Both the position numbers and the translations under genes were made by a program. Below, piece by piece: positions 149 through 17,135 of a DNA stretch of 56,116 nucleotides. How positions within the stretch are numbered: position 1 is the stretch's first letter; each line of letters starts with the position of its first letter. Under the pieces are notes generated by a model. The model was not told the origin of the DNA and searched no databases. It saw only the letters and a list, made by a program, of their open reading frames with translations. The stretch comes from Elusimicrobiota bacterium (GTDB taxonomy: Bacteria > Elusimicrobiota > Elusimicrobia > Elusimicrobiales > UBA9959), in NCBI GenBank assembly GCA_027340875.1, contig DAIENX010000076.1:1-56116 (forward strand), in the 5' to 3' direction.

Positions 149-302
149 TTTGCGCCCTGGGGATGGCTCCCTTGGGCACGGGGTCGGCCACACCGTGGCC
201 GCCCCTCCTCACACTGCGGTGTCGCTTCGCTCCACTCGGTCGGCGCGCTACGCAAGCGCCTCCCTCCGCGAAGGCCCTCGGGAGCCATCCCCCGGCCGCA
301 AA
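149..302. repeat. Structured intergenic element, copy A
   Basis: Arms GGGGATGGCTCCC/GGGAGCCATCCCC enclose core GGCC-ACACCGT-GGCC...GCGCTACGCAAGCG shared with copies B-D. Confidence 0.8.
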
Positions 303-340
303 AGGGGACAAGTTTATAATGAGGGACAGATATATAGCTT

Positions 341-542
341 GGTTCTTCCGGTAATCGCGTGGGTGGCCGCCTAAGGGCGACGCGGGGACCGGGTTAGCAA
401 AACCTTCGTGAGGGCGAGGCTTGCACAGCGCCGAGCCCGAATGATGAGCGAGGCCACGGTGTGGACGAGCGCGTTTTGCGTTCCGGTCCCCGTGGCGCCC
501 GGGAGACAAACCGCGATTGCCCACGCTAAACTAGGAAGAGCC
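341..542 (+). repeat. Structured intergenic element, copy B (inverted relative to A; possible ncRNA)
   Basis: Nested stems 341-349/534-542, 350-359/512-521, 375-392/483-500 with G-U pairs on + strand; reverse complement contains CCACACCGTGG..CTCATCATTC..GCGCTGTGCAAGC; TATAAT at 315-320. Confidence 0.7.
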
Positions 543-602
543 GTTTTAAGTTGTTAATAAGTCTGTAACCAAAGCGAAACGGGGTTTTTTTAGAATATTT
601 GC

Positions 603-3062
603 GTGATACCAGCTTTAGGCGCGATGTTCAATATGGACGACAAGGACAACAAACTGCCGAAGCCGCCTGGCATGCCGCCGCTCCCCCCGGGAGCGATGAA
701 GCCCGGCCTGCCGCCGCCTCCCGGAGGAAAGCCCGGCCTGCCTTCCATGCCGTCCCTGCCCTCTTTCCCCGGAGCCGCGCCAGCCGCCTTCCAGCCCATG
801 GCCCCCGGCGGCTTCGCCGCGCAGCCCGCGCCGCAGCAGGCCGCCGCCCCGCAGAAGGACGACGCCGAGGCGCGCCGCCTGCAGGAGGAGAAGGACAGGC
901 TGGAGAAGAAGATCAACGACATGGAGAAGCTCCTCTCGCAGGAGAAGGAGAAGGCCCTGCTCGCCACGCTGAAGAACCAGCAGGACGAGGCCCTTTCCTC
1001 CCGCGTGGAGTCCTCGCTGAAGGACATCCAGGAGAAGATGCGCCGCGACCGCCGCGACCACGAGGTCGAGGAGGAGCGCCTCACCCTCAAGAGCAAGATC
1101 AAGGAGCTGGAGACCCGCCTCGCGCAGGAGCGCGAGACCTGGATGACCACGCTCAAGAACCAGATGGCCGAGCGCGAGGTCCAGGGCAAGGACGTAGAGA
1201 GCCATTTCATCTACCGCCTGCAGGAGATGGAGCGCCGCTGGCTGGACGAGAAGGCCCAGTGGCAGAAGGAGATCATCTCCCGCGAAGAGACGATACGCTC
1301 GCTCAAGTCCGCGGCCGAGAAGCTGCGCGACCTGGAGGACGAGTACCGCAAGGTGTCCATGGAGCGTTCCATGGAGAAGACCATGTCGGAGCGCGAGCTG
1401 GCCAAGCTGCGCGACGAGGCGGCCCGCGCCGACCGCGAGAAGGCGTCCATAGAATCCTATATCAAGATGATCCCCGAGAAGGAACGGGAGATCGCCGAGG
1501 TGAAGTCCGAGAACGCCTCGCTGAAGGCCCGCGAGGAGACCGCCCGCATGGAGGCCAGGCACTCCTCCGAGAAGCATTCCGCCGAGATCGAGAAGCTGCA
1601 GGGCGAGATAGGGCGCCTGCAGGCCGACCTCGGCTCCATAGCCGACCGCAAGAATTCCGAGATGAACGACGCCCTGCGCAAGGAGGCCGAGCGCTTCGAG
1701 GCCCAGCTGCAGGAGAAGGAAAAGATCATTGCCGACGTGTCCGGCGAGAAGGTCCGCGCGATATCGGAGCTGATGAAGCTTAAGGGCTTCGTCTCCCGCG
1801 TGCAGGCCATCAACGCCGTGCTCGAGAAGGAGCGCGGCCAGCTGAAGATGGAGAAGATGCAGCTCGCCCAGACCATGGCCGGCCAGGTGGAGGAGATGCG
1901 CAAGCTCAAGGCCGAGCTTGACGGCATCAAGGCCGCCCACCAGCAGGAGCTCGACTCGCAGGCCGCGGCCGCGAAGTCCGAGATAAACAGGATCAAGAAC
2001 GGCTACGCCGTCGAGATGGGCGCCAAGCATTCCGAAGAGATGGCCGAGGCCGCCCGACTGCACCAGGAGGAGCAGGCCCGCCTGTCCGCCGTGCACCAGC
2101 AGGAGCTGGCGCAGGCGGCCGCGGCCCACCAGGCCGAGGTGTCCCGCCTGGAAGCCGCCCGCCGCGAGGAGGCCGCCAGGGCAGCCGCGGCCCATCAGGC
2201 CGCCGTGGCCAAGATCTCCGGCGAGCACCAGGGCGAGCTCGCGCGCCTGGCCGCCGAGCGCCAGGCCGAGTTCGATTCGCGGGTGTCCCAGCTCAGGATG
2301 CAGTACGAGTCCGCGCTGGAAGAGGAGAAGTCCGCGGTCAGGAAGCAGCTGGAGGCCTCGCACGCCTCCGAGCTGCACGAGGCCCGCGCCTCCGCCTCCT
2401 CCTCCGCCGACGCGATCGTCCGCCTGGAGGCAGAGAATCGCCGCCTGGCCGCCGAAGCCGCGGTCTTCGAGAAGACCATGTCGGCCCGCAGCAAGGATTT
2501 CGAGGAGCGCCTCGCCCGCGCCGAAGCCGAGGCCAAGCGCCGCGACGAGCAGGCCGAGAAGGCCGAGGCCCGCCGCGCCGAGGCAGTGGTAAGGGAAGAG
2601 AACGCCCAGCGGACCGCCCGCGAGGCCGAGGAGGAGCGCCAGAAGACCTCCGCCGAGCTGGCCGCGCTGCGCGAGAAATTTTCCACCATGGAGGCGAGGC
2701 TGGCCGAGCTTTCCGCCTCCGCCTCCTCCGGGGCCGCCAAGGCCGCCGAGGACCTCAAGGCCCAGGCCGAGAGCCTGCGCATAGAGAGCGAGAACCGCGC
2801 CCGTTTCGAGTCCGAGGTGCTTTTCCTCAAGCAGAAGGTCCAGCAGATGGAGCTCGCGGCCCAGGAGGCCGCCGTCCAGCTGGAGAACGAGAGCTCCAAC
2901 GCCGCCGCCATACAGGCCGCGGCCGACGCCCAGGCGGCCGACCTCTCCGCCCGCATGGAAGAGCTTTCCGCCGAGGTGCGGCGCTACAAGGACATGGAGG
3001 CCTCCGTGGCTTCCAGGCTTAAGTGGGCGCTGAAGGGCAAGAAAGAGGAGAAGCCTCAGTAA
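603..3062 (+). CDS. Long coiled-coil protein with proline-rich (PPG) N-terminus
   Basis: 819-aa ORF; N-terminal KPPGMPPLPPGAMKPGLPPPPGG, then ~700 aa E/K/A/R-rich heptad-like sequence; start could be 603, 624 or 633. Confidence 0.85.
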   Translation: MIPALGAMFNMDDKDNKLPKPPGMPPLPPGAMKPGLPPPPGGKPGLPSMPSLPSFPGAAPAAFQPMAPGGFAAQPAPQQAAAPQKDDAEARRLQEEKDRLEKKINDMEKLLSQEKEKALLATLKNQQDEALSSRVESSLKDIQEKMRRDRRDHEVEEERLTLKSKIKELETRLAQERETWMTTLKNQMAEREVQGKDVESHFIYRLQEMERRWLDEKAQWQKEIISREETIRSLKSAAEKLRDLEDEYRKVSMERSMEKTMSERELAKLRDEAARADREKASIESYIKMIPEKEREIAEVKSENASLKAREETARMEARHSSEKHSAEIEKLQGEIGRLQADLGSIADRKNSEMNDALRKEAERFEAQLQEKEKIIADVSGEKVRAISELMKLKGFVSRVQAINAVLEKERGQLKMEKMQLAQTMAGQVEEMRKLKAELDGIKAAHQQELDSQAAAAKSEINRIKNGYAVEMGAKHSEEMAEAARLHQEEQARLSAVHQQELAQAAAAHQAEVSRLEAARREEAARAAAAHQAAVAKISGEHQGELARLAAERQAEFDSRVSQLRMQYESALEEEKSAVRKQLEASHASELHEARASASSSADAIVRLEAENRRLAAEAAVFEKTMSARSKDFEERLARAEAEAKRRDEQAEKAEARRAEAVVREENAQRTAREAEEERQKTSAELAALREKFSTMEARLAELSASASSGAAKAAEDLKAQAESLRIESENRARFESEVLFLKQKVQQMELAAQEAAVQLENESSNAAAIQAAADAQAADLSARMEELSAEVRRYKDMEASVASRLKWALKGKKEEKPQ

Positions 3063-3110
3063 TACCCCGCGGGGCGGCGGCAGGGCGGGGGAACGCGCGT
3101 TTCCGCCGCC

Positions 3111-3138
3111 TTGTCCCGTATTTCAATTAAAGTATAAT
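3111..3138 (+). promoter_or_regulatory. sigma70-like promoter of flbD-motAB operon
   Basis: TTGTCC (3111-3116), 16 nt, TATAAT (3133-3138); ATG 7 nt downstream. Confidence 0.55.
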
Positions 3139-3145
3139 TACTACG

Positions 3146-3370
3146 ATGATCAAGCTGCAGAAACTCAACGGCGCCACGGTGGTGGTCAACGCCGAGCTCA
3201 TAGAGAGCGTGGAATCCGCCCCGGACACCGTGATCAACCTGGCCACCGGCAACCGGTTCCTGGTGAAGAACCCAGTCGACGAGGTGATAGCGCTGGTCGT
3301 GGAGTACAAGAAGAAGGTCTATTCCGAGCGGAAATGCGTCAACCCGCTCGAAGGCTACGAGAAGAAATAA
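3146..3370 (+). CDS. flbD: FlbD/SwrD family protein
   Basis: MIKLQKLNG...VNAELIESVESAPDTVINLATGNRFLVKNPVDEV matches the FlbD pattern; directly upstream of motA. Confidence 0.85.
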   Translation: MIKLQKLNGATVVVNAELIESVESAPDTVINLATGNRFLVKNPVDEVIALVVEYKKKVYSERKCVNPLEGYEKK

Positions 3371-3385
3371 GGGACTCATCGGCTT

Positions 3386-4171
3386 ATGGACATAGCAACG
3401 CTGACCGGCATAGTGGTCTTTTTCGGCTTCGTCGTGGTCTCGGTCTACCTGGGCGAGGGCATGGCGGGCTTCAAGCCGTTCCTGAACGTGGAGGCCTTCC
3501 TGATCGTCATGGGCGGCACTTTCTGCGCGCTGCTGGTCAACTTCCCGCTCTCCTCGGTGATAAGCGTCGGCAAGGTCCTCAAGAAGGTCATGGCTTCCAA
3601 GGGCGAGGACACCTCCAAGCTGGTCTCCACCTTCGTCTCCCTCTCGCAGAAGGCCAAGCGCGAGGGCTTCCTGGCGCTGGAGGCCGACGCCAAGGCCATC
3701 GACAACGATTTCCTGAAGCGCGGCGTGCAGCTGGTGATCGACGGCGCCGACCACGAGTTCATCCGGAACATGCTCGAGACCGAGCTGGACTTCATCCGCG
3801 AGCGCCACAAGGCGGGCCGCGAGATCTTCAACGCGCTGGGCACCTACGCCCCGGCGTTCGGCATCATCGGCACCGTGCTCGGCATGATCCTGATGCTCTC
3901 CTCCATCGACGACGTGGCCCAGGTGCCGCGCCGCATGGCCCTGGCGCTGGCGGCCGCGTTCTTCGGCCTGGGCTCGGGCTACTGGCTTTTCCTGCCTATG
4001 GCCGGCAAGCTCAAGCACCGTTCCGAGGAGGAGCTGTTCGTAAAGGAGATCATCATCCGCGGGGTGCTGCTGCTGCAGAGCGGCGCTACGCCCAGCGTGG
4101 TGGAGGCCAACCTGAAGGCCTACCTTGAGCCCGAGAAGCGCAAGGCGGTGAAGAAGGAAGCCGCCGCTTAA
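3386..4171 (+). CDS. motA: Stator A subunit (MotA/PomA family)
   Basis: KREGFLALE, FLKRGVQLVIDG, APAFGIIGTVLG and LPMAGKL motifs; hydrophobic TM segments. Confidence 0.92.
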   Translation: MDIATLTGIVVFFGFVVVSVYLGEGMAGFKPFLNVEAFLIVMGGTFCALLVNFPLSSVISVGKVLKKVMASKGEDTSKLVSTFVSLSQKAKREGFLALEADAKAIDNDFLKRGVQLVIDGADHEFIRNMLETELDFIRERHKAGREIFNALGTYAPAFGIIGTVLGMILMLSSIDDVAQVPRRMALALAAAFFGLGSGYWLFLPMAGKLKHRSEEELFVKEIIIRGVLLLQSGATPSVVEANLKAYLEPEKRKAVKKEAAA

Positions 4172-4174
4172 CTT

Positions 4175-4951
4175 ATGGCCGTCAAAGTTAAGGGGATGAT
4201 CCCCGAGGACGATTCCAGGGTGGCCCCTATAGGCCACCCGGCCCCGCCGTGGATGGTCAACTACGCCGACCTGATGACGGAGCTGGTCTGCTTCTTCGTC
4301 ATCCTGTACGCCCTGTCCGCCGCCTTGAACAAGGACATGCAGAAGGCCCAGCAGGAAGTGCAGGACATGATAGACCAGGGCAAGATGGTGGGCCAGGTGC
4401 AGATGGACAAGGAAGGCATGCGCATCACGCTGGAGGAGCAGAGCCAGGTGGCCTTCTTCCAGAGCGGCAGCGCCGAGCTGACCCCGCAGATGACCGAGCA
4501 GATGGCCAAGCTGAGCCCTATACTCTTCAAGCTGGCCGAGAAGCACGATATCGTGGTGGAAGGCCACACCGACAACATCCCGATCAGGACCAAACAGTAC
4601 GATTCCAACTGGGAGTTGTCCACGGCCCGCGCCACCAGCGTGGTGAAATCCCTGCTCGCCGATAATTTCCCGCCCAAGCACCTGGCGGCCGTGGGGTACG
4701 GTGAATACCACCCCATAGTGCCCAACGACACGGAAGCCGACCGCAAGAAGAACCGCAGGGTGGTCTTCTTCATCAAGAACAACCCCTACCCCGACCCCAC
4801 CGGTCCCCCGGGAGAGAAGGGCAAGGCCGCCCCCGCCGCCGCGGAGAAGGCGCCGCCTCCGCCGGAGGGCGGAGCGCCGGCCGCGCCGGAGGCGCAGGCC
4901 CCGGAGACGCCCGCCCCCGCCGGAGACGCCCCGGCCGAGCCCGGCCCCTGA
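4175..4951 (+). CDS. motB: Stator B subunit (MotB) with OmpA-like peptidoglycan-binding domain
   Basis: WMVNYADLMT TM helix with conserved Asp; EGHTD, NWELSTARA, NRRV motifs; Pro/Ala-rich tail. Confidence 0.92.
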   Translation: MAVKVKGMIPEDDSRVAPIGHPAPPWMVNYADLMTELVCFFVILYALSAALNKDMQKAQQEVQDMIDQGKMVGQVQMDKEGMRITLEEQSQVAFFQSGSAELTPQMTEQMAKLSPILFKLAEKHDIVVEGHTDNIPIRTKQYDSNWELSTARATSVVKSLLADNFPPKHLAAVGYGEYHPIVPNDTEADRKKNRRVVFFIKNNPYPDPTGPPGEKGKAAPAAAEKAPPPPEGGAPAAPEAQAPETPAPAGDAPAEPGP

Positions 4952-4966
4952 GCAGGAAAGTCTTAT

Positions 4967-5731
4967 ATGAACAGACACGCTATCAAGATACTCGCGCTCG
5001 CTCTGCTGGCGGCCCCCCTGACGGGCTGCATGGGCGGCCTCAAGCGGCTCAACGTGGTGGATTTCTCGGACCAGCGCGTAGGCGACCTGTCGCTCACCAA
5101 GAAGGTCACCGGCAAGCGAGAGTTCCTGTTCTTCTCCACCACGAAGATGGGGCTGTTCCTGGAGGGCAACATACAGGGCGTGGTGACGGATTACCAGGGC
5201 AATCCCATCGAAGGCGTGACCGTGAAGGTCATGCCCGACACCGGCAACAAGGCCGGCGGCGAGGGCGGAGGCGTGGGCGGGGAGCTGCCGCTGGAAGAGA
5301 ACGCGAATTCGGCTATAAACCTTTCCTTCGCGCCCGGCATCAGCGACACTATGGGCCTGTACAAGATACATTTCTCGCTCCCGGTGAAGGACAACGAGGT
5401 GGACGTGCGCGGAAAGCTCGTCTACAATCCCGGCTGGGACCAGCAGAAGCTGAACCTGGGCAAGGCCTACGAGCCGCAGGTCAAGGAGACGCCTTTCCGG
5501 ATCTACTACAACATGGACACCGGGTTCCTCGCTTTTCCCGAGGGGATACGCAAGATCATAGTGCAGCCGGTGGGAGAGGGCAAGGGCAGGCTGCAGGCCC
5601 TGCCGGGCTCGCCCGCCCCGCAGCCGGCGGCTCCCGCCGCCGGCGCCGGTACCGCCGCCCCCGCGGGAGCGCCGGCCGGCGGAGGCCAGGCCGAGGAGGA
5701 CCTCTTCAAGGGGTTCGATTTCGGCCAGTAA
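4967..5731 (+). CDS. Lipoprotein with carboxypeptidase-regulatory-like beta-sandwich domain
   Basis: Lipobox LTGC; IQGVVTDYQGNPIEGVTVKV motif; 15 nt after motB. Confidence 0.75.
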   Translation: MNRHAIKILALALLAAPLTGCMGGLKRLNVVDFSDQRVGDLSLTKKVTGKREFLFFSTTKMGLFLEGNIQGVVTDYQGNPIEGVTVKVMPDTGNKAGGEGGGVGGELPLEENANSAINLSFAPGISDTMGLYKIHFSLPVKDNEVDVRGKLVYNPGWDQQKLNLGKAYEPQVKETPFRIYYNMDTGFLAFPEGIRKIIVQPVGEGKGRLQALPGSPAPQPAAPAAGAGTAAPAGAPAGGGQAEEDLFKGFDFGQ

Positions 5732-5749
5732 CGGCCGCTCAGGGCGGGG

Positions 5750-5779
5750 AAAAGAGGGACCTCCGGGTCCCTCTTTTTT
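5750..5779 (+). terminator. Intrinsic terminator of motAB operon
   Basis: AAAAGAGGGACC-TCCG-GGTCCCTCTTTTTT. Confidence 0.8.
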
Positions 5780-5910
5780 GCGGCTGGCCGGGGATAGCTC
5801 CGTCGGGCACGCGGTCGCGAACACCGTTCGCGCCGCTCGTCACTCCCTCGCCGCGCTACGCAAGCGGCTTCGGTCCGCGACGGCCCTCCGGACCCATCCT
5901 CGGCCGCCGC
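5780..5910. repeat. Structured intergenic element, copy C
   Basis: Arms GGCCGGGGAT/ATCCTCGGCC; core GCGG-TC-GCGA-ACACCGT-TCGC-G-CCGC-TCGTCAC...GCGCTACGCAAGCG. Confidence 0.8.
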
Positions 5911-5968
5911 TGTCCAGATTAACGTCCCTCTTTTCCTTCGGCTTCGCTAAATAGATAGAATAATGTGG

Positions 5969-7039
5969 ATGAAGAAGAAGGTCGTAGTGGCGATGTCCGG
6001 CGGCGTGGACTCGTCGGTGGCCGCGGCGCTGCTCAAGGAGCAGGGCTACGAGGTCATCGGCGTCACGCTGCGCCTCTTCTCGGAGCGCAAGGGCGGCATC
6101 AAGTGCTGCGGCGGCGCGGAGAGCGCCGACAAGGCCCGCGCCTCGGCCCAGGCGCTGGGCATCAGGCATTACTTCAAGAGCGCGCAGGGCCTGTTCTCGG
6201 AGAAGGTCATAGGCGATTTCGTCGGCTCCTACCTGGCCGGCCGCACGCCCAACCCCTGCGTGGAGTGCAACCGCTATCTCAAGTTCGACTACCTCTACAA
6301 GCTGGCGCTGTCGCTGGGCGCGGGCTACCTGGCCACCGGGCATTACGCCCGCATCGCAAAGGAGGGCGACCGCTACGCCCTTTGCCGCGGCACCGACCCG
6401 CTGAAGGACCAGAGCTATTTCCTCTACTGCCTGCGCAGAGCGCAGCTGCCGCGCCTGCTCTTCCCGCTGGGCGACATGACCAAGAGCGAGGTCAGGAAGG
6501 CCGCGGCCAAGCTGTCCCTGCCGTCCGCCTCCGAGCCGGAATCCAAGGATATCTGCTTCGTCACTCAGGGGAATTACGGGACCTACCTGGGCAAAGAGGC
6601 CGGCGTGAAGCCGCGCCCCGGCTACATAGTGGACGTGTCCGGCAAGCGGCTGGGGCGGCACAACGGCTTCTTCAATTTCACGGTGGGCCAGCGCCGCGGC
6701 ACCGGCGTATACGGCGGTGCCCGCCTTTACGTGACCGAGGTGCGGCCGGGAACTAACGAGGTGGTAATGGGCCCGCTTTCTGCGGCCCACAGCGCCGCCT
6801 TTACGGTGACAGGCCTGAACTGGCTTAAGGCGCCGGAGAGCGGCGAGTTCAGGACCAGCGTGCAGATACGCTACAGGCATAAGCCTGCCGCGTGCCGCGT
6901 TCTGATCGGCAGGGGGGGCGCGCAGGTAAGCCTGGACAAGCCGCAGTTCGCGGTGGCCCCGGGCCAGGCTGCCGTCTTTTACGACGGGGACGAGGTGCTC
7001 GGCGGCGGCATAATTTCCGGTATAGGAGGCGCTTTATAG
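5969..7039 (+). CDS. mnmA: tRNA 2-thiouridine(34) synthase
   Basis: AMSGGVDSSV, TPNPCVECN, ATGHY, KDQSYFL, FTVGQRRG, APGQAAVFY motifs. Confidence 0.97.
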   Translation: MKKKVVVAMSGGVDSSVAAALLKEQGYEVIGVTLRLFSERKGGIKCCGGAESADKARASAQALGIRHYFKSAQGLFSEKVIGDFVGSYLAGRTPNPCVECNRYLKFDYLYKLALSLGAGYLATGHYARIAKEGDRYALCRGTDPLKDQSYFLYCLRRAQLPRLLFPLGDMTKSEVRKAAAKLSLPSASEPESKDICFVTQGNYGTYLGKEAGVKPRPGYIVDVSGKRLGRHNGFFNFTVGQRRGTGVYGGARLYVTEVRPGTNEVVMGPLSAAHSAAFTVTGLNWLKAPESGEFRTSVQIRYRHKPAACRVLIGRGGAQVSLDKPQFAVAPGQAAVFYDGDEVLGGGIISGIGGAL

Positions 7040-7055
7040 CGCGGAGGCTGACAAC

Positions 7056-8132
7056 ATGAAAAAGAAGATAGGCGTGATCTTCGGCGGCAGGTCTTCAGAG
7101 CACGAGGTCTCGGTGGAGTCCGCCAAAACCGTCTGCGCGGAACTCGCGAAAGCCGGCTTCGCGGTATTCCCGCTCTATGCGCCGCGCGGCGGGGCCTGGC
7201 GGCTGGTGAAGCCGGCGGACCTTCAGGCCGGCCGTCTCTCCGGCCCCGAAGTGGAGCCTTCTCTCTCCGGGGCCTGCTTCGTGAAGAAGGGAGGGGGAAG
7301 GCTGAAGCCTGACGCCCTGTTCCCCATAATACACGGCACTACCGGTGAGGACGGCGTGCTGCAGGGCTTCATGGAGCTGGCCGCCATCCCTTACGCCGGC
7401 TGCGGCGTCACCGCCTCCGCGGTGGGCATGGACAAGGAGATATCGAAAGCGCTGGCGGCCCTGGCGGGCGTGCCGGTGCTGCCGCACGTGGTCATCAGGG
7501 CGCATCAGAAGGCCGCTATGGGGCCGCTGCTGAAGAAGGCCGCCTCGCTCGGCTATCCGCTTTTCGTCAAGCCCGTCTCGCTGGGCTCTTCGGTGGGGGT
7601 TTCAAAAGTGAAGTCCCTGGCCGAGCTGAAACCGGCCGTTCTCAAGGCCTTCCGTTTCGATTCCGCCGTGATGATAGAGAAGGGCGTGGACCGTGCCAGG
7701 GAGATAGTCTGCGGCGTGCTGGGCGACCAGGCCAAAGCCGCCGCCAGCGTTACCGGCGAGGTGGTCCCGAAAGGCAAACACGAGTTCTTCGACTACGAGG
7801 CAAAGTACCTCGACGACTCCGGCATGGAGTTCCTGCTGCCGGCGCCGCTGCCGGCCGCCGTGTCGCGCCGCCTGCGGGACCTGGCCGTGAAGGCTTTCCA
7901 CGCGCTCGGCTGCACCGGCATGGCAAGGGTGGATTTCCTGGTGGACCCCAGGCGGCCGGAGAGGGCGTGGTTCTGCGAGATCAACACGCTGCCGGGCTTT
8001 ACCTCGCACAGCCTGTACCCGCGCCTCTGGGCCAGGACGGGCGTTCCGCCGTCCAGGGTCGTGGCCAAACTGGTCGGCTACGGGCTGCGCACGGCGGCCG
8101 CCAGGCGGTCGCTCAGGATCTCCAGAAAATAA
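7056..8132 (+). CDS. ddl: D-alanine--D-alanine ligase
   Basis: GGRSSEHEVS, HGTTGEDG, GSSVG, FFDYEAKY, EINTLPG motifs. Confidence 0.96.
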   Translation: MKKKIGVIFGGRSSEHEVSVESAKTVCAELAKAGFAVFPLYAPRGGAWRLVKPADLQAGRLSGPEVEPSLSGACFVKKGGGRLKPDALFPIIHGTTGEDGVLQGFMELAAIPYAGCGVTASAVGMDKEISKALAALAGVPVLPHVVIRAHQKAAMGPLLKKAASLGYPLFVKPVSLGSSVGVSKVKSLAELKPAVLKAFRFDSAVMIEKGVDRAREIVCGVLGDQAKAAASVTGEVVPKGKHEFFDYEAKYLDDSGMEFLLPAPLPAAVSRRLRDLAVKAFHALGCTGMARVDFLVDPRRPERAWFCEINTLPGFTSHSLYPRLWARTGVPPSRVVAKLVGYGLRTAAARRSLRISRK

Positions 8133-8155
8133 CACGGCCCCGTGAGGGGGCCGTG
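8133..8155. terminator. Hairpin between convergent genes (putative terminator)
   Basis: CACGGCCCC-GTGAG-GGGGCCGTG. Confidence 0.5.
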
Positions 8156-8184: not shown

Positions 8185-10056
8185 CTATTCCTCGTCCTCG
8201 TAAACGTATTCGTATTCGTCCTCGGCGGCCGGCTTGGCCGCGGCTTTGGCCGGCTGGCGCTTGGGCTTGGCCGCCGCCTTGGCGGCGGGCTTGCGTGCCG
8301 CGGCGGCAGGCTTCCTGCCGGCCTGCGCGGCGCGTTTCGGCGCGCGTTTCTTCGCGGCGTCGGCGAACAGCGCTTTGGCCAGGTCATTGGCGGGTTCCAC
8401 GAGCTTCTTTTCCCGGTCCACCGTGAAGGCATAGACCAGGCTGGCCGTCTTGGAGGGGACCGTCGCGACTATGGAGTATTTGCCTCCATCCCCCAGCGAG
8501 ACGACCCAATTATCCACGCTGTAGGTGCCTCCTGACTTCTCGGCGCTTGCGGCCAGGGTGTTCTCCAGCGTCTCGCCGCTGTTCTTGAAGGCGAACGTCC
8601 TGGTTATATAGATCATCTCCGGCACGACTTCCGGCGGTATGGCTGGCGCCTTGGCCTCCTGCGCGGCCGGGGGTTGCTGCGCCGGGGCTTCCTGCTCCGG
8701 CTGTGTCTTGGCGGCCTGTTCCGGGGCCGGGGTTTCCTGGCCCGCGCCTTCCGCCGGCTGCTGCGCCGGGGCGCTTACGAAGGGAAGCTGGAAGGGGATG
8801 AACTTGGTGGCGTCGAAGATGCCGAAGTTCTTAAGTCCTATCACTGCGCCGAGCAGCACCGCCGCCAGCAGCACGAGCGTTACCACCAGCTTCAGCACCT
8901 TCTTGACGGCCATGCCGAGATTGGACTTCTTAGTGCCTTCGTCCTTTATCTCCTGCTTGGCGGTCTCCTTCTGCGGCTCCGGCTCCTTCTTCTTGTTCTC
9001 CGGCTCGCGCGCGGGCTGGACACCGAACACGGTTTCCGAGACCGGTTCCGGCTTCATCTCCGCCGGCTTTGCGGCCGCGGGGGGAGGTGCCTGCAGGTTC
9101 TTCTTCAGGTCCCCTACCGAGGTCTCCAGATAATAAAGCTTCTCCATTACCTGGCGCTGGAACTGGGAATCGCCGGACGAGGAGGCCGGCTGCAGGCTCA
9201 GCTGGTCCAGCTTCTGGCGGAGCGGAGAAACGGCCGCCTCCACGTCGTTCTTCGTGGCGGCGCTGCGGGAAAGCGCGTCCAGCTTCGCTATCAGGCGCTC
9301 CAGGCCGCCCACGTCCATGACGGGCTGGGCGGCAGGCTGCGGCGCTGCCGCTGGAGCGGCCTCCGGCGGGAACTGCGTCCTTACCGGTTCCTCTATCCGG
9401 GCAGGCTCCGGCACGGGCGCCGGGGCCTGCTGCGGCTCGGGGGCAGCGGCCTCCTGCGGGGGTATGGCGGCGCCGGAGGTCCTGGGCTCCAGAGAGATCT
9501 CGTCGTTCCTGGGAGACTGCGCTTCCTGGCCCGAGATGGTCTCGCCGCGCCTGACTATCTGCGAAAGGCTTATCGGGTCGAAAGCCGAGGAGGACTGCTG
9601 CGCAGGCTCCTGGGCCGGGGCCTGTTCCTGCGCCGGCTTCGGCGCGGGAGCGGGCTTGCTGCCGAAATGCGCGATTTCTATATTCCCTAGGCCGGGAGCA
9701 TGCGAGGACGGCGGGGCCGGGTCCACGCTCTGTCCGCCGCCGAGCTTCTTGAAACTGAGACTGACCGGCTCTATGGCCGGCTCCGCGAAAGGCTTCTTGG
9801 CCGGCTCCGGCTGCGCGGCGAGACCTGGGGCGGGGGCTTCCGCGGCAGGGGCCCGAGCTGGCGCCTGCTGTCCGGAGGCGGGGGCTCCGTCCCCGAGTTC
9901 GGGATAGGACGAGATCTCTTTCCAGTCGGCGGTCTTTTCGCCTACGGGCGTCTGGGGGCAGACCAGCAGGGAGGGTGAGTAGGCGGGAAGCTCCCGCAGC
10001 TGCTCCTTTTCGAAAGGGCCGAGTATCTCGTTATTGACGTACGCCCAATATTTCAT
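8185..10056 (-). CDS. Single-pass membrane protein with N-terminal GYF_2-like domain and Pro/Ala-rich linker
   Basis: MKYWAYVNNEILGPFEKEQL...LLVCP...DWKEISSYPEL resembles GYF_2; TM segment LVVTLVLLAAVLLGAVIGL; acidic Tyr-rich C-terminus. Confidence 0.75.
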   Translation of the reverse strand: MKYWAYVNNEILGPFEKEQLRELPAYSPSLLVCPQTPVGEKTADWKEISSYPELGDGAPASGQQAPARAPAAEAPAPGLAAQPEPAKKPFAEPAIEPVSLSFKKLGGGQSVDPAPPSSHAPGLGNIEIAHFGSKPAPAPKPAQEQAPAQEPAQQSSSAFDPISLSQIVRRGETISGQEAQSPRNDEISLEPRTSGAAIPPQEAAAPEPQQAPAPVPEPARIEEPVRTQFPPEAAPAAAPQPAAQPVMDVGGLERLIAKLDALSRSAATKNDVEAAVSPLRQKLDQLSLQPASSSGDSQFQRQVMEKLYYLETSVGDLKKNLQAPPPAAAKPAEMKPEPVSETVFGVQPAREPENKKKEPEPQKETAKQEIKDEGTKKSNLGMAVKKVLKLVVTLVLLAAVLLGAVIGLKNFGIFDATKFIPFQLPFVSAPAQQPAEGAGQETPAPEQAAKTQPEQEAPAQQPPAAQEAKAPAIPPEVVPEMIYITRTFAFKNSGETLENTLAASAEKSGGTYSVDNWVVSLGDGGKYSIVATVPSKTASLVYAFTVDREKKLVEPANDLAKALFADAAKKRAPKRAAQAGRKPAAAARKPAAKAAAKPKRQPAKAAAKPAAEDEYEYVYEDEE

Positions 10057-10241
10057 ATCGCCTTCCAGTCCCCGCCGGCCGCCGGCCGACCATGCAGGCC
10101 GCCCGCCGCGGGGATAACGATAGGATTAAGGAAATGACTAATGTCGCTCATAATTATACGGTTAAATTCTAGCGCCGCCCTGTTACAGAATTAATAACTA
10201 TTGGTTAAATCCTTGTGCGGGAGTTTTTGTATACTACAGGC

Positions 10242-11090
10242 ATGGACACCAGGATAGTGCGCCTTTTCATCTACATTTTTTCCGGCCTCATAGCGGCTTT
10301 CTCGCTGCTGATGCTGGCGAACTACCTGGGCACGCTGACCGGAGAGCGCACGGAGCGCGCGGAGGTGGGGGAGCAGCAGGAGGATGACCCCAGGGCCATG
10401 GCCGGACAGGCCATAGCGGCCGCGCGGGCCGCCAGCCGCAGCGGCTCGCAGTACATCCCCTTCAGGACAGGCCTCTCGACTTCCGCCGCCGTGACCTCGG
10501 TGGGTGGGATAAGGCTGGTGAAGGACCAGGATTTCAACGGCGTGGCGGAGAAGCCGCAGGGCATGATGGACATGCTAAACGAGATGGGCGGCGGCAAGAA
10601 GAAGCCGGCCCCGGTGAAGCTGGAGGATTCCGACCTGGACCGCAAAATGCGCAAGATAGGCGAGGACCCGGCGGAACAGAAGCTGAAGGCCGCGGCGATG
10701 CCGGAACTGGGCCGGGGCGGCGGCCAGGAGGGCGTCACGTTACTGACGGCCCCTGTGGATTTCAAGGTGTTCAAGAGCTCCGAGACCTGGTGGGCCTTCG
10801 CCAATTCGCACAAATGCCGCTCCGACCTGCAGTCCGCGTCCGTCGGACCGCGCGGCGTCCCTTCCCCGGATTTCTCGCGGGAGCGCGTGCTGGTGCTGGT
10901 CTCGGTGTCGGACCTGCCGAACGGCATATTCCGGATAACTGCGGTGAGCGCCGCCGGCGGCAAGGTGGTGGTCAGCTACAGGGTCGACCCGATGGCCATG
11001 TCGGCCGGAAACTACGAGCCGCAGCACGACTTCTACTCCGCTTCCGCGATCCCCGCCAGGGGCGAAGTGAAGCTCTCGCAGGTGCCCTGA
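10242..11090 (+). CDS. Membrane-anchored hypothetical protein with PrcB C-terminal-like domain
   Basis: N-terminal TM helix; PDFSRERVLVLV...GIFRITAV...KVVVSY pattern. Confidence 0.6.
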   Translation: MDTRIVRLFIYIFSGLIAAFSLLMLANYLGTLTGERTERAEVGEQQEDDPRAMAGQAIAAARAASRSGSQYIPFRTGLSTSAAVTSVGGIRLVKDQDFNGVAEKPQGMMDMLNEMGGGKKKPAPVKLEDSDLDRKMRKIGEDPAEQKLKAAAMPELGRGGGQEGVTLLTAPVDFKVFKSSETWWAFANSHKCRSDLQSASVGPRGVPSPDFSRERVLVLVSVSDLPNGIFRITAVSAAGGKVVVSYRVDPMAMSAGNYEPQHDFYSASAIPARGEVKLSQVP

Positions 11091-11097
11091 GAGGGGC

Positions 11098-11709
11098 TCA
11101 GATCTTCCGGCGGAAGAAACCGCTTCTGCCGGCCTCTTCCTCGAATCCCATCTTCCTCAGGTAAGCGGCGTGCTTCTCCGAGGCGGCCGCGGCCGTGAAC
11201 GTCGCGAAACCGACGAACGCCCCGCCGCCGCGCGTGCTGTTGAACAGGAAGCGCGCGCTTTTCAGGTCGCGGTAGTCCTCGGAGACATAGTCCAGGTGCA
11301 CGCGGACGTCGGTCCCTTCCTCGGTGTAGACGAAGAGCCCCACCGGCAGCAGGTTGCGCAGGATGAAGACGCACCGGGGCGATCTGAGCGCCGACAGGTC
11401 GAAGTCGGGGAAATACTGCCAGATACCGCGGGCGTGATAGGACAGGAAATTGGAAAGCAGCGGGTCCCGCTCCCCCACCGGCATCAGCCTGAACACGTCC
11501 TTCTTGGACTTCAGCGCTATGATGTGCCAGAGGTCTATGCCCGCCACGAACAGGTTCACCGCGAATACCGGCCAGGCCTTTACCAGCGCCCCGTACAGGA
11601 CGAAGGCGAGAGCTCCCGCCAGGTTCAGGACCCGCAGGCGCAGCACGTTGCTGGTCAGCAGCGACAGCGCAACCAGCGCCGAGGCGGCGTAGCCTATCAG
11701 CTCAGCCAC
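11098..11709 (-). CDS. YgjV-like membrane protein with soluble C-terminal domain
   Basis: IGYAASALVALSL...LRLRVLNLAGALAFVLYG hydrophobic N-terminus; overlaps pdxA stop. Confidence 0.65.
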   Translation of the reverse strand: MAELIGYAASALVALSLLTSNVLRLRVLNLAGALAFVLYGALVKAWPVFAVNLFVAGIDLWHIIALKSKKDVFRLMPVGERDPLLSNFLSYHARGIWQYFPDFDLSALRSPRCVFILRNLLPVGLFVYTEEGTDVRVHLDYVSEDYRDLKSARFLFNSTRGGGAFVGFATFTAAAASEKHAAYLRKMGFEEEAGRSGFFRRKI

Positions 11710-12640
11710 GGGCCCTCCCGGCAGCCAGCCCGGCCGCGAAGGCGATAGCCGCCGCCATGCTCGACGCGTCCGCCCTGCCCTTCCAGGCTATATCGAAGGC
11801 GGTGCCGTGCGTCGGCGAGGTGCGGATGAAAGGCAGGCCCCAGGTCCAGTGCACGGCCGGGCCGCCGCAGGGTGCCACCTTCAGCGGGGCCAGCGCCTGG
11901 TCGTGGTAGAGGCAGAGAAGGCCGTCGCTTTCGCCGGCCAGGTGCGAGGCCCAGGCGGCGTCGGACGGCAGCGGGCCGTTCACGCGCAGGCCCCGGCGCC
12001 GCAGCTCGCGGGCTGCCGGCCTCAGCGTCGAGATCTCCTCGCGGCCGATCACGCCGCCGTCGCCGGCGTGCGGGTTCAGCGCGCAGAGCGCTATGCGGGG
12101 CTCCCCGTGCCCCAGCGCCCGCAGCGCGGAACGGAAAAGCAAAGCCTTCTCCTTCACCAGCGCCTTCGTCAGGAGGCGGGGCAGGTCGCGCAGGGGCGCG
12201 TGCTCGGTCACCAGCGCGGCGTTGACGCGGCCGCGGGAGAAGAGCATCAGCGGCTCGCGCTTCTCCAGGAGCCGGAAAAGGTCGGTGTGGGCGGGGGCGG
12301 GGGCTCCTGCCAGGGTCCAGGCCTCTTTTGAGACGGGCGCGGTGACCATGGCGCCGAACGCGCCTTCCTTCAGCAGGCGTACCGCTCCCAGCACGGCTTT
12401 AAGCGAGGCCGCTCCGCCGGCGGCGGTGGGGCGGGGCCTGCCGGAGGCTCCTGCCGCGGCGTCGCAGGGTATCAGCGGGCAGAGGGAGGTTGTCCAGCCG
12501 GCGCGCCGCATGGCGGCGGTGTCCCCTATCACGGCGGGCAGGCAGCTGCGCCGTACGGCGGGGCTGCGCAGGGCCTTGACGGTTATCTCCGGCCCTATGC
12601 CTAAAGGGTCTCCCGCGGTTATCAGTATCGACGGTTTCAT
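11702..12640 (-). CDS. pdxA: 4-hydroxythreonine-4-phosphate dehydrogenase (PdxA family)
   Basis: GDPLGIGPEI, LNPHAGDGG, YHDQAL, GLPFIRTSPTHGTAFDIA motifs; follows surA. Confidence 0.93.
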   Translation of the reverse strand: MKPSILITAGDPLGIGPEITVKALRSPAVRRSCLPAVIGDTAAMRRAGWTTSLCPLIPCDAAAGASGRPRPTAAGGAASLKAVLGAVRLLKEGAFGAMVTAPVSKEAWTLAGAPAPAHTDLFRLLEKREPLMLFSRGRVNAALVTEHAPLRDLPRLLTKALVKEKALLFRSALRALGHGEPRIALCALNPHAGDGGVIGREEISTLRPAARELRRRGLRVNGPLPSDAAWASHLAGESDGLLCLYHDQALAPLKVAPCGGPAVHWTWGLPFIRTSPTHGTAFDIAWKGRADASSMAAAIAFAAGLAAGRARG

Positions 12641-12650
12641 TATCAGCGGT

Positions 12651-12691
12651 AAAAAAACGGCCACGGGAGGGTCGCGCCTTCCCGTGGCCGT
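12651..12691 (-). terminator. Intrinsic terminator after surA
   Basis: Minus strand CACGGCCACGGGAAGG...CCTCCCGTGGCCGTTTTTTT. Confidence 0.7.
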
Positions 12692-12703
12692 GCTGCGGGT
12701 GGC

Positions 12704-13804
12704 TTACTTGTCCTTCTTGTCCGCGAAGATCTGGATCTTGGCGTCCTTCCGGAGCTCCTTGACGTACTTGCCGAGCTCCTCGGCGAAGGCGTTCTGCGAC
12801 ATCAGCTGCTCCAGGTCGTCCCTGACGGCCTCGAAGCGCAGCTTCTGCTCCGCGCGCTTCTCCTCGAGACGCAGGATGTGCCAGCCGAACTTGGACTTTA
12901 TAGGGGCGGAGTTCTCGCCCACTTGCAGCTTGAAAGCGGCGCTCTCCACCTCCTCCGGCAGCATTCCTTTCACCACGTAGCCGATGTCGCCGGCGCGGGC
13001 GGCGCTCTCCTTGACGTCGGAATCCTTCTCGGCCAGCTAGCCGAAGTCGGCCCCGGAGTCGAGCTGCTTCTTTATCGAGGCGGCCTTGTCGGCGGCCGCC
13101 TTCTGCTCGGCCTCGGTGGCGCCCTCCTTGACCTCGACCAGTATGTGGCGCAGGCGCAGGCGCTCGGCGGTCAGCTCCCTGAACTTGCCTGCTACGGCCA
13201 TCAGGTCCTGTTTTTCCTCGTCGCTCATACCCTTCACATCGTCGGCCTTGCCCTTCAGCACCAGGACTATGTCGTCGAAGTACTTCCTGACGTCGTCGTC
13301 GCCTGGCATCTTGGCGCGGGCCTTCACGGTCTCCTGCACGAGCTTTTGGACCATCAGTTGCTTGCGGATCCGCTCCCGGAACTCGTCCATCGTGACGCCT
13401 TCCTTGCGCAGCTCCGCCTGGAAGGCCTCCTCGGCCTTGTCGGTGGAGAGTGCGGCGCCTTCGGGCGAACGTGTGAAGCGCTTGCGGATCTCGGCCACGC
13501 CGTTCTCCAGTTCGCGCTCGTAGACCTTCAGTTTCATCGACTCGGCCTTCTGGCGGAGCAGGGCCTCGTCGACCAGTTTGTCGAGCGCGGCCTTCTCCAG
13601 CTGGGCCTCCGCGTCCTTCTGCTTGAAGAAGTCCGGCATCGCCGCCGCGTACTGCTCTGTCAGCGCGTCCTTGGCCTTGTTGTACTCGGACATAGTGACG
13701 GGTTCGTTGTTCACCCGCGCCGCCAGGTCCTCCACGACCTTGGCCTCCGCGGGGACGGACGCGGCCAGCAGGGCCGCGGCCAGAAAGCTATTTATACTGT
13801 TCAT
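12704..13804 (-). pseudogene. surA: SurA-like chaperone/PpiC-type PPIase interrupted by one in-frame TAG (13037-13039)
   Basis: SurA N-domain then ...HILV...SGADFG*LAEKDSDVKESAARAGDIGYVVKGMLPEEVESAAF...SKFGWHIL in one continuous frame. Confidence 0.8.
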
Positions 13805-14591
13805 CTAGGACCTCCACCTTGTTCTTCTCCTGGAACTTGGCCAGGTAGTCGTCGAACTTCTTCTTCTCCAGGATCTTGCGTATGCGGTCCGTGGAGGAGG
13901 CGAAGTCCGCCTTCTCCTGGCCCAGCTTCTTCAGGATATGGAAGCCCATGGCCGTCTTTACGATGCCTTGGGTCTCCCCTACCTTCATCTTGAAGGCCAT
14001 GTCCTCGAGCTCCGGCATGAACTCGCCGTACATGACCGGAGGCAGCCGCACCGCGTCCTTGTCCATCGAGTATTCCTTGGCCGTCTTGTCGAAGTCGGCG
14101 CCGGCCTTAAGCTTCTTCATGACCTTGTCCGCCTCCTCGTAGCTGGGCATCAGGATGTGCGCCAGCCTGACCTTGTAGGGGTATTTCTCGTAATACTCCT
14201 TGATCTCGTCCTCGGTCACCTTCAGCTCCCCGTTGCGCAGGGCCTCTATCCACATGCGCGTCAGCAGGAAATCCTTGTAAGAGGCGAAGTCCTTCTTCAT
14301 CTCGGCTTCTTTATCGCGGATGCGGGCCTTGTAGTCGTCCCCGGAGGCGACCTTGCTGCCGCGCGCCGCTATCAGCATCAGTCGCTCGTGTATCAGCACG
14401 TCCAGGAACTGCTTGCGGCCGGCCTTGGAGGAGAGGTACTCCTGCGCGGCGGGGCTGATCTCGGAGAGTTTCTCCTCGAAGTAGCCTTCTGTTATCTTCT
14501 CGGGGCCCACGCGGGCCAGTACCTTGTCGTCCTGACGCGAACAGGCGGCAAGGGCCGCCGCGGCCAGGACCAGGGTGATGGTCTTTTTCAT
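13788..14591 (-). CDS. PpiC/PrsA-type peptidyl-prolyl isomerase lipoprotein
   Basis: Lipobox LAAC; LAHIL, GADFDKTAKEYS, VKTAMGFHILK motifs. Confidence 0.9.
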   Translation of the reverse strand: MKKTITLVLAAAALAACSRQDDKVLARVGPEKITEGYFEEKLSEISPAAQEYLSSKAGRKQFLDVLIHERLMLIAARGSKVASGDDYKARIRDKEAEMKKDFASYKDFLLTRMWIEALRNGELKVTEDEIKEYYEKYPYKVRLAHILMPSYEEADKVMKKLKAGADFDKTAKEYSMDKDAVRLPPVMYGEFMPELEDMAFKMKVGETQGIVKTAMGFHILKKLGQEKADFASSTDRIRKILEKKKFDDYLAKFQEKNKVEVLDEQYK

Positions 14592-14688
14592 ATCAATACG
14601 AATGTATCATTTTACCCGGAGCGGTATCAAAGCAGGCGCGCCGGGGCCGGTTTTGCCTTCAGGGGGCATAAACTATATAATTAAGTGG

Positions 14689-16857
14689 ATGAAATTCGTA
14701 AAGGACTTCCTGGACTATCTGGACGGGCTCTCGGCCCGCGAGCTGGTCCTGAAGGCGGTCTACCTGATCGGCATCGTCTCCGCCGCCGCCGTGCTGACGG
14801 CCGCGGTGCTGATGCGCAAGATCCTCTCGGACATCCCGTCGGTGGACAAGCTGGACGAATACACTCCTTCGCTGACCACCTACGTCTACGACATCAACAA
14901 CAACGTCATAGCCGAGTTCTCGGTGGAGAAGCGCGCGATCCTGCCGTTGAACAAGATCCCGGTGGACATGCAGAACGCGGTCATCGCGATGGAAGACCAG
15001 AACTTCTTCCGCCACTGGGGCATCTCGCCGCGCGGCATAGCCCGCGCGCTGATGCGCGACATCCTTCACCGCCGCACCGCGCAGGGCGGCTCCACGCTGA
15101 CGCAGCAGCTCTCCAAGAACATCTTCCTCGAGCGTTCCAAGACCATAACCAGGAAGATAAAGGAGATGGTGCTGGCCCTGCAGATAGAGCGCAACTTCTC
15201 CAAGCAGGAGATACTCGCGTTGTACCTGAACCAGATCTACTTCGGCTCCGGGGTGTACGGCGTGCAGTCCGCGGCCCGGCTCTATTTCGGCAAGGACGTC
15301 TCGGAGATGACGCTGGGGGAATGCGCGCTGCTGACCGGCCTGATCCCCAACCCGGCGCGCTTCTCCCCGTTCGCCCATCCGGATACGGCCCGGTTGCGCC
15401 GCCGCTTGGTGCTGCAACGAATGAAGGACGAGGGGTACGTCACCGCCGAAGAGGTCAAGACCGCCGAGGCCGAGCCGATACCCGACGAGAAGTTCTCGAT
15501 GCATTCCGGTCACGCGGCCTACTTCGTGGAGTATATCCGCCAGCAGCTGGAGCCCAAGTACGGCACCGCCCAGCTGTGGAAGGGCGGCATGAAGATCTAC
15601 ACCACGCTGGACCTGTCCATGCAGATACCCGCCGAGGAGGGCATGGAGCGCAACCTGGCCAAGTACGACCAGGTGGCCGCGGACGCGCGCGCGGCCCAGC
15701 AGAAGGCGGAGCAGGAGGAGGACAAGGAGAAGGGCGCGGAGGACGAAGAGGGTAAGGACACGGCCGCGGCTTCCTCCGCCACGCTTCAGGGCGCTTTCGT
15801 CATACTGGACACCAAGACCGGGGCCATCAAGGCCATGATAGGCGGGCGCGACTTCCAGACCACCAAGTTCAACAGGGTCACGCAGGCAGCGCGGCAGGCC
15901 GGCTCCACGTTCAAACCCTTCGTCTGGATGTCCGCGCTGCTGAGCGGCTACACGCCGGCGAGCATGATAGAGGACTCGCCGATGGCCTACTACAACGACG
16001 GCAAGGACTGGCGCCTGCTGGAAGGCGCCACCGACCAGTACGCCATAGACCTGGCCGTGCAGCCGTTCGTCGGCAACAAGGATTTCCAGATCTGGGTGCC
16101 GAACGATTTCGACGGCAAGTTCCTGGGCAGGATAACCCTGCGCCACGCGCTGGAGCAGTCCCGCAACCTGGCCTCTATCTACCTGGTGACGCACGTAGGC
16201 CCCACGCTGGTGGCGGACGTGGCGCACCGGGCCGGGGTCAAGCACAACCTGGAGGCGGTGCCCTCCATCGGCCTGGGCACGTCGGGGGTGAACCCGCTGG
16301 AGATGGCCAGCGCCTTCTCCACGTTCGCCAACGGCGGCATCCATGCCGAGCCGTTCGCCGTGCTGCGCGTGACGGACAACCAGGGGCGCGTGCTCGAGGA
16401 GTCCGTGCCCGAGGAAACGGAGGCCTTCTCGCCGCAGCTCTCCTACGTGCTGGTCAACATGATGAAGGGCGTCATCCAGCGCGGCACCGGCATCAAGGCC
16501 TCCACGCTGAAGCGCCCGCTGGCCGGCAAGACCGGCACCAGCCAGGACGCCAAGGACATGTGGTTCATCGGCATGACGCCGGACCTGACCGCCGCCTCCT
16601 GGATGGGCTACGACGACTTCGCCTCGATACCGGTAAAGGACTGGAGCAGCTCCCTGGCGGTGACCTGGTGGACGGACATCATGGCCAGCGTGTTCAAGAA
16701 CCAGCCGGTGCGCGATTTCCCGGTGCCCGACGGCATAGTCTTCGTCACGGTGGACCAGGAGACGGGCAAACTGGCGCTGCCCACCTGCAAGAAGAAGATA
16801 CTCGAAGCCTTCGTGAAGGGCACGGAGCCAAAGGAATTCTGCGACGCGCAGCACTGA
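14689..16857 (+). CDS. mrcA: Penicillin-binding protein 1A (transglycosylase/transpeptidase)
   Basis: EDQNF, QGGSTLTQQL, RKIKE, STFK (SxxK), SRN, KTGT motifs. Confidence 0.93.
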   Translation: MKFVKDFLDYLDGLSARELVLKAVYLIGIVSAAAVLTAAVLMRKILSDIPSVDKLDEYTPSLTTYVYDINNNVIAEFSVEKRAILPLNKIPVDMQNAVIAMEDQNFFRHWGISPRGIARALMRDILHRRTAQGGSTLTQQLSKNIFLERSKTITRKIKEMVLALQIERNFSKQEILALYLNQIYFGSGVYGVQSAARLYFGKDVSEMTLGECALLTGLIPNPARFSPFAHPDTARLRRRLVLQRMKDEGYVTAEEVKTAEAEPIPDEKFSMHSGHAAYFVEYIRQQLEPKYGTAQLWKGGMKIYTTLDLSMQIPAEEGMERNLAKYDQVAADARAAQQKAEQEEDKEKGAEDEEGKDTAAASSATLQGAFVILDTKTGAIKAMIGGRDFQTTKFNRVTQAARQAGSTFKPFVWMSALLSGYTPASMIEDSPMAYYNDGKDWRLLEGATDQYAIDLAVQPFVGNKDFQIWVPNDFDGKFLGRITLRHALEQSRNLASIYLVTHVGPTLVADVAHRAGVKHNLEAVPSIGLGTSGVNPLEMASAFSTFANGGIHAEPFAVLRVTDNQGRVLEESVPEETEAFSPQLSYVLVNMMKGVIQRGTGIKASTLKRPLAGKTGTSQDAKDMWFIGMTPDLTAASWMGYDDFASIPVKDWSSSLAVTWWTDIMASVFKNQPVRDFPVPDGIVFVTVDQETGKLALPTCKKKILEAFVKGTEPKEFCDAQH

Positions 16858-16883
16858 GCCGCCGCGCATTCCCGCAAAGTGTA

Positions 16884-16917
16884 AAACCGCCGGCTCCCGC
16901 CGGCGGTTCCTTTTTTG
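16884..16917 (+). terminator. Intrinsic terminator after PBP1A
   Basis: AACCGCCGGC-TCCC-GCCGGCGGTT-CC-TTTTTT. Confidence 0.8.
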
Positions 16918-16941
16918 ATACTTTGAGGAGCGTTTTGCGAA

Positions 16942-17135
16942 TAGGCCTGCCCGCCCGGCCGGAAAGCGTGTTGTGCGCGGGTGACGGCGGATTTGACGAG
17001 GCAGGACCTCGCGCAGGCCGACGCTTGCGAAGCGCGGAGGCCGAGTGAAGAGGCGCGCGAACGGTGTTCGCGACGCCGTGCCTGACGAGTCAAACCGCCG
17101 TCAGGCCCCGCGCATTGGGCGGCCGTGCGGGCCTA
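16942..17135. repeat. Structured intergenic element, copy D (inverted relative to A and C)
   Basis: Arms TGACGGCGGATTTGAC/GTCAAACCGCCGTCA; core 17002-17084, reverse complement GGCG-TC-GCGA-ACACCGT-TCGC-G-CGCC-TCTTCAC...GCGCTTCGCAAGCG. Confidence 0.8.

Follow-up and report, generated by a model that had tools for sequence, protein, structure and literature searches.

REP, BIME and REPIN sequences are gene-less, extragenic, imperfect palindromes found in tens to hundreds of copies. They are reported to fold strand-specifically as single-stranded DNA (ssDNA) with bulges, to bear compensatory changes, to form pairs in which two kinds of unit flank a spacer of fixed length and poor conservation, and to insert into or beside existing copies (PMC3116915, PMC8266576, PMC6006769). 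Oriented hairpin repeats, NTS and SRM, accompany the Ssn nucleases, whose small single-domain GIY-YIG gene often adjoins a copy (PMC11893778). Integron attC sites and the DUF1874 motif are low in sequence conservation, are likely read by shape and strand on folded ssDNA and have foreign genes alongside, and ssDNA elements more complex than a hairpin are called rare in PMC5737381. Likenesses to all of these were found in a repeat of a 56,116-nt stretch of Elusimicrobiota DNA (GenBank assembly GCA_027340875.1, contig DAIENX010000076.1, positions 1 to 56,116; hereafter the window). Its four copies in the window, A to D, are members of a dispersed, gene-less, intergenic family of 135-190-nt repeats in one family of the Elusimicrobiales. 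The repeat family is real and is apparently an undescribed, non-autonomous folded-DNA repeat. It is probably a REP/REPIN/BIME-like element that likely works as a branched hairpin of folded ssDNA and is likely copied in trans by a nuclease or transposase, which fits the REP/MITE-like ssDNA element, mobilised in trans, that the first-pass annotation had offered as one of two possibilities.

The likeness to each system is partial. The Elusimicrobiales unit is branched and about 135-190 nt long, whereas the REP is a 20-40-nt hairpin; it is also conserved at the tip and variable in the arms, lacks a GT[AG]G tag, exchanges nested modules and has some long target duplications. Breakpoints just 5' of the Elusimicrobiales hairpin match the cut position given for SsnA, but SRMs are about 28 nt long and conserved in sequence (PMC11893778), while the local GIY-YIG protein is UPF0213-like and its gene adjoins a copy no more often than an ordinary site does. 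Unlike attC sites, close pairs of the repeat stand back-to-back and never in tandem, there are no arrays, no integron integrase lies beside them, and homologues of the genes enclosed by pairs are unflanked. The RNA motif TwoAYGGAY (RF01731) resembles the repeat in that its long variable stem bears two hairpins at a three-way junction, but the loops of the repeat are GNA/GTAA and GGT rather than AYGGAY, and it has no Rfam match. A genome search with RF01731 gave no match, with the controls silent too.

A covariance model built from 43 copies of the source genome (G000) matches exactly four places in the window, at the coordinates and in the orientations originally assigned. Copy A (149-302) lies with its folding, purine-rich strand on the minus strand (model match 161-291, 66 bits), and copy B (341-542, plus) has long outer arms, an AAAA/TTTT stem subtype and an ACA loop (386-489, 76 bits). 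Copy C occupies 5780-5910 on the minus strand (5792-5900, 93 bits) and copy D 16942-17135 on the plus strand (16989-17096, 102 bits). The same model finds 74 copies in G000 and, in relatives within the same family, 68 in G023, 99 in the complete genome G024 and 53 in G030. With nhmmer, 83 matches at E<0.05 were obtained in G000, a few being halves of one copy, and none in the reversed genome, so the repeat is not due to chance; the alternative first raised, chance GC-rich hairpins, is not supported. A strict pattern matches 60 of the 79 other genomes of the Elusimicrobiales family, namely 40/42, 3/3, 7/7, 3/3 and 7/7 in five genera, and none of 17 in the eight remaining genera, while a looser pattern gave 0-2 unstructured matches each in 274 genomes of other families in the phylum. 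When species genomes were scanned, the covariance model bore out at least 66 loci, out of 80 listed, nearly all titled Elusimicrobia, Elusimicrobiales or Elusimicrobiaceae, with a few titled 'bacterium' and one Magasanikbacteria contig end. The 14 listed loci from other phyla, as well as a single match in viral contigs, were pattern matches that the model did not confirm. The supposed novelty relative to Rfam held, in that no repeat copy in the window matched at gathering score and copies A and B gave only a 15-bit miRNA chance match up to E=10. A literature search found no description of the family, although motif lists in supplements, or papers beyond those covered, could hold one.

The purine-rich strand forms a variable stem (median span 135 nt, up to ~190 nt with outer arms) that opens at its tip into a three-way junction. 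A helix of constant length with tandem G·A pairs at shifting positions, followed by a TT bulge and a GC-loop-GC cap, makes up one branch; the other ends in AC-GGT-GT, with the GGT loop in 188 of 194 copies. The shared core first described was largely recovered, since ACACCGT, TCNTCA(C/T) and GCGCTNNGCAAGC occur in all four window copies and CGA.GG in A, B and C, whereas D reads CGAGGT. Two corrections concern pairing: the AC and GT of the conserved ACACCGT are paired around a 3-nt loop, and TCNTCA (RTGANGAG on the other strand), taken for a conserved unpaired segment, is actually the 3' strand of a covarying helix, with RTGANGAG in only 79 of the 268 collected copies. Covariation of the stems, as had been claimed, was found, with a score of 0.301 in the 43 copies versus 0.122 after shuffling and no more than 0.103 when partners were slid; for 77 copies taken from other genomes it was 0.398 versus 0.130, in an alignment itself fitted to the model. 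Folding z-scores were -4.2 (D) and -5.9 (A) as RNA, and -4.5 to -5.7 for the purine-rich strand of B, C and D as DNA. These results support the proposed constraint on structure. The two strands are not equivalent: GA dinucleotides number 3004 versus 884 for TC, and the purine-rich strand out-folds its complement in 45 of 46 copies with RNA energies and in 39 of 46 with DNA energies. Among the 268 copies, 186 have GC-GNA-GC or GC-GNNA-GC as the cap, 3- and 4-base loops interchanging freely, and such mini-hairpins are described in PMC13037366 as very stable in DNA and much weaker in RNA.

Further evidence comes from a 46-nt hairpin element, of which 17 of 41 listed G000 copies are nested in the repeat family. 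All 17 lie on the folding strand, and 16 directly follow a loop, which is the GGT loop in 12 cases and the other loop in 4. Based on this strand preference and position, we infer that the purine-rich strand is folded in vivo. In G000 the 46-nt element inserts without duplication, into itself as well as into the repeat. A 20-25-nt module with a GAA mini-hairpin, together with a related module, is inserted at a few fixed positions in the repeat family; copy A carries such an insertion of 23 nt with a GC-GAA-GC mini-hairpin (about 211-233, minus), which recurs in many copies.

Where copies lie near each other, their arrangement is strict. Close pairs are back-to-back in 22 of 22 cases in G024, and pooled loci gave 26 divergent, no convergent and no tandem pairs; single copies outnumber pairs in G000. 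Two kinds of foot are combined in most G024 pairs, separated by a ~38-nt spacer that is only 47% alike between pairs (39% when shuffled), and 14 of 19 fetched pairs fall in one spacer-length class, with cores shuffled between feet. Copies A and B form such a pair across a 38-nt AT-rich spacer between their 5' feet (303-340), located between a gene ending at 146 and the gene for an 819-aa protein in an operon that includes MotA/MotB. Three or more other families of long structured repeats occupy the same intergenic slots, sometimes nested in the repeat (G000 contigs C53, C25, C103, C18 and C5). No strict replication-strand bias was seen along the G024 contigs, where no formal test was made.

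Comparison of relatives shows both copying and replacement. G024 contains near-identical whole copies, with arms and tails common to them, which argues that whole units are copied. In G023, one copy stands as a clean insert of 170 bp, with 18 bp of a gene start duplicated, where the G000 site is empty, and copy C is flanked by 11-bp direct repeats (5767-5777 and 5924-5934, plus), a candidate target duplication. Both flanks could be placed in G000 for 50 G023 copies, 14 more having no syntenic match and others lying at contig edges; the orthologous G000 interval holds a family member for 38 of the 50, where ~5 were expected (57 of 538 gaps occupied). Nine of these 38 shared sites are at least 95% identical and 29 differ, some occupants being inverted or one of a pair, and of the 12 intervals counted as 'empty', many contain palindromes of other families. 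While third codon positions differ by 21.5% between G023 and G000, shared sites with at least 100 aligned bases (8 shorter rows dropped) fall into 10 that differ by 0-7% and 11 that differ by 20-35%. The modules of the changed copies are of discrete types that recur elsewhere in the genome, which suggests that these differences are module swaps and not drift. One shared site keeps both arms but swaps the core, another inverts the core, and a third retains 125 nt nearly identical in two genomes that are 78% alike; two G000 copies have 98% of the core in common and 44% of the arms. Behind six complete copies, at five sites, stands a 3' tail left over from an older copy; a pattern search for leftover 5' heads gave none, though two could be recognised by eye. 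Occupancy across the genus is 13 of 30 loci for site D, 3 of 23 syntenic loci for site C and 7 of 30 for the A/B site. Copy C is kept in the closest relative with a core 98% identical and is absent at 20 of the 23 sites, and site D in that relative holds a different subtype.

Foreign-looking DNA is found between some pairs. Four back-to-back pairs, two in G000 and one each in G023 and G030, enclose 0.6-1.2 kb of 40-49% G+C, whereas only 1.6% of G000 windows are below 50% G+C. A 700-bp flank of low G+C lies on the 5' side of 5 of 65 copies and on the 3' side of none of 63, against the same background of 1.6%. At two of the four cargo sites, a relative has the pair without the cargo, and likeness ends at the 5' foot. 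Two cargo homologues found elsewhere among the 79 genomes have no flanking repeat copies; the idea that cargo travels with the pair was rejected on this ground, and the pairs look like landing sites for foreign genes and not like carriers. An IS110-family element with a long non-coding 3' end lies at the 5' foot of one copy (G023 C60:6428-9682) and is absent at the corresponding G000 site.

A mechanism may be proposed, in which the purine-rich strand would fold when replication or transcription exposes it, and an enzyme would read its shape, that is, the three-way junction, the tandem G·A pairs and the mini-hairpins, and would cut near the 5' foot. New copies would land beside or inside old ones, recombination between copies would exchange nested hairpin modules, and breaks at the 5' feet would admit foreign genes between paired copies; the resident copy would then be held by purifying selection until replaced. 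It is also possible, though unlikely, that the shape is read for recombination, with an enzyme cutting across the folded stem so that heads are exchanged between loci at paired positions, cores being swapped within retained arms or arms around retained cores, in which case back-to-back pairs would be integrase-free capture sites that take up foreign genes between their 5' feet.

Several findings weigh against a REP-like element copied in trans as ssDNA. GNRA tetraloops, a motif that suits RNA too, make up 114 of 268 loops. There is no universal end tag, the counts at the foot (background in brackets; n=268) being 66 for GGAG (16), 14 for GTAG (5) and 14 for GTGG (11). Target duplication is not general, since exact flanking repeats of at least 10 bp occur at 8 of 191 copies versus 11 of 570 shuffled pairs, and the five low-GC flanks represent only ~3 independent events. 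The conservation of retained copies exceeds what is expected of a parasite, which points to host function or recent transfer. Both metagenome-assembled genomes compared, G000 and G023, mix two strains ~90% alike, so that some comparisons may be assembly mosaics. Within G000 the mixture, 87-92% alike, is seen between C30:1-5038 and window positions 548-5600, as well as between C73 and C108 and between C11 and C77; where the window has A and B, the second strain carries two copies that are oriented likewise but differ in subtype and arms.

Finally, no cognate enzyme was found among Y1/RAYT proteins, reverse transcriptases, IS110 and tyrosine recombinases. The first-pass annotation had suggested looking for RAYT/TnpA(Y1) genes flanked by the motif; in 30 Y1_Tnp/RAYT loci, taken from more than 100 matches, only one weak repeat match (23 bits) occurred, and no tnpA-REP gene is flanked by the repeat. 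A RAYT-like Y1 gene of 213 aa in G000 (C111:16320-16961) is flanked by three copies of a different short palindrome and is a probable REPtron. Reverse transcriptase (RVT_1) was matched in none of five genomes, one of them 100% complete, where controls were matched in 3 of 14. IS110 is present in 13 of 43 genomes, is absent from G000 and G024, and stands beside a copy in 1 of 24 loci, and for tyrosine recombinases a copy was seen in 1 of 14 loci, ~1 kb off.

A specific form of trans copying, in which a UPF0213-type single-domain GIY-YIG protein would be the cognate nuclease, forming an Ssn-like pair with the repeat and nicking the folded strand near the 5' foot to drive copying, replacement and gene capture, is rather improbable. 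The 92-aa gene has orthologues (at least 58% identity) in the same five genera as the repeat, and eight other genera have only 45-47% relatives or none. Loss of the gene in element-rich genomes was considered and dismissed, the three apparent absences being contig ends; two element-free members of the genus gave no GIY-YIG match, but the neighbouring spoVG match is missing too, so they are uninformative. The first-pass annotation had also suggested looking for GIY-YIG genes flanked by the motif. Among 30 genus loci, 13 have a copy next to the gene, 3 of these with back-to-back copies on its two sides, and an adjoining copy is clear in 6 of 20 further loci (3 of 5 in genus g11). However, window site D is occupied equally often, the upstream site is a tRNA 3' end, the usual context of the repeat, and none of 11 loci in genera g8, g10 and g105 has an adjoining copy, with one weak match ~600 bp away. 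The gene is a syntenic core gene, so its co-occurrence with the repeat may reflect shared ancestry only. The nearest solved relatives of the protein are the UPF0213 proteins 1zg2 and 1ywl, which we take to belong to a subfamily other than cd10448 (Ssn), and a single-sequence fold model (pLDDT 53) was too poor to use. The Ssn system does offer a precedent for a nuclease-repeat pair, but there repeats accompany 71% of the genes and lie on both sides of 42% (PMC11893778). In the locus itself, spoVG - tRNA-Gln - GIY-YIG - glmU, a 181-aa gene follows the GIY-YIG gene in some genomes only, and in G000 it looks frameshifted in C73 relative to C108.

It is equally hard to favour a role in mRNA, according to which the repeat would be a hairpin of 3' untranslated or intercistronic regions that protects transcripts, stalls ribosomes or terminates transcription, the host selecting for one at these sites. 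The position of copies is suggestive. By crude gene calls in G000, 71 of 72 copies lie outside called genes, and gaps longer than 120 bp are occupied in 15 of 49 cases between convergent genes, in 37 of 338 between co-directional genes and in 5 of 151 between divergent genes, an enrichment at gene 3' ends. The 3' end of the repeat is often within ~10 nt of a converging stop codon; that of copy A is 2 nt from the stop of the upstream gene (TAA, 144-146), and that of copy D, between the convergent genes for PBP1A (14575-16857, plus) and alr (17140-18213, minus), is 4 nt from the alr stop. The conservation of retained copies and the continued occupation of sites while their occupants change are also in keeping with such a role. 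On the other hand, of 148 copies in co-directional gaps, 62 have the folding strand as sense and 86 as antisense, and sense copies show no significant excess of GNRA loops (29 of 62 versus 29 of 86, p=0.13). Separate terminator-like hairpins stand beside C (5750-5779, plus, belonging to the motB-side gene upstream and seen at empty orthologous sites as well) and upstream of D (16885-16916, plus, after the PBP1A gene), many orthologous sites are empty, and the back-to-back rule and the cargo are left unexplained.

A dedicated enzyme could be dispensed with if host recombination and template switching at cruciform-prone palindromes copied, converted and inverted the units, in which case covariation would be partly mechanical. 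The lack of a cognate mobile-element gene in the searches, the inversions between arms and the module swaps, both expected from conversion between repeats, and the several other palindrome families that fill the same slots all agree with this explanation. Template switching is expected to erase mismatches in palindromes, but on one strand the junction, the TT bulge and the tandem G·A pairs have been retained; neither a lineage-specific burst of whole copies nor a strict back-to-back rule is given by it, and it is very unlikely.

The other possibility first offered, an ncRNA or ribozyme-like family, here a stand-alone multi-copy RNA with its own promoter per copy, can hardly be upheld. It draws on the strong covariation and the three-way junction, on tandem G·A pairs and GNRA loops, which are RNA motifs too, and on some G024 spacers that resemble sigma-70 promoters by eye. 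A sigma-70-like promoter of the repeat was rejected after a promoter scan against controls, as scores of at least 6 were reached upstream of 31 sense, 30 antisense and 26 shuffled sequences of 268. T-runs follow the 3' end in 34 of 268, not above the 5' side, no Rfam family matches, an invariant, unpaired catalytic core is lacking, many copies have inserts of 23 to 46 nt in both loops, and the folding strand, as said above, is sense in fewer than half of the co-directional copies. Three metatranscriptomes of the same study gave short matches from other organisms only and none on the four copies, which is uninformative on expression either way. A hammerhead ribozyme was dismissed (CUGANGA and GAAA words together in 1 of 268, the look-alike segment being paired), as were a MITE of a DDE insertion sequence (arms mostly 50-75% identical between nearest neighbours, no general target duplication) and a SINE-like retro-mobile element, given the reverse transcriptase result and its controls.

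As for the surroundings, the operon beyond copy B (603-5731, plus) encodes the 819-aa protein, which has a proline-rich start, plus MotA and MotB homologues, and copy C is located before mnmA. Rfam matches elsewhere in the window are a tmRNA (23522-23873, plus), a c-di-GMP-I riboswitch (30681-30771, minus) and a tRNA (53153-53224, plus).

Natural ssDNA elements beyond a simple hairpin have rarely been described, and how REP-like repeats spread is a long-standing question. Once the enzyme is found, its recognition of shape and the breakpoint rule would become directly testable in this family, which offers natural variants by the hundred, copies with defined ends from a recent burst, and filled sites that can be matched with empty ones. 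In the Elusimicrobiales family that carries it, the repeat marks points of foreign-gene entry into an otherwise conserved gene order.

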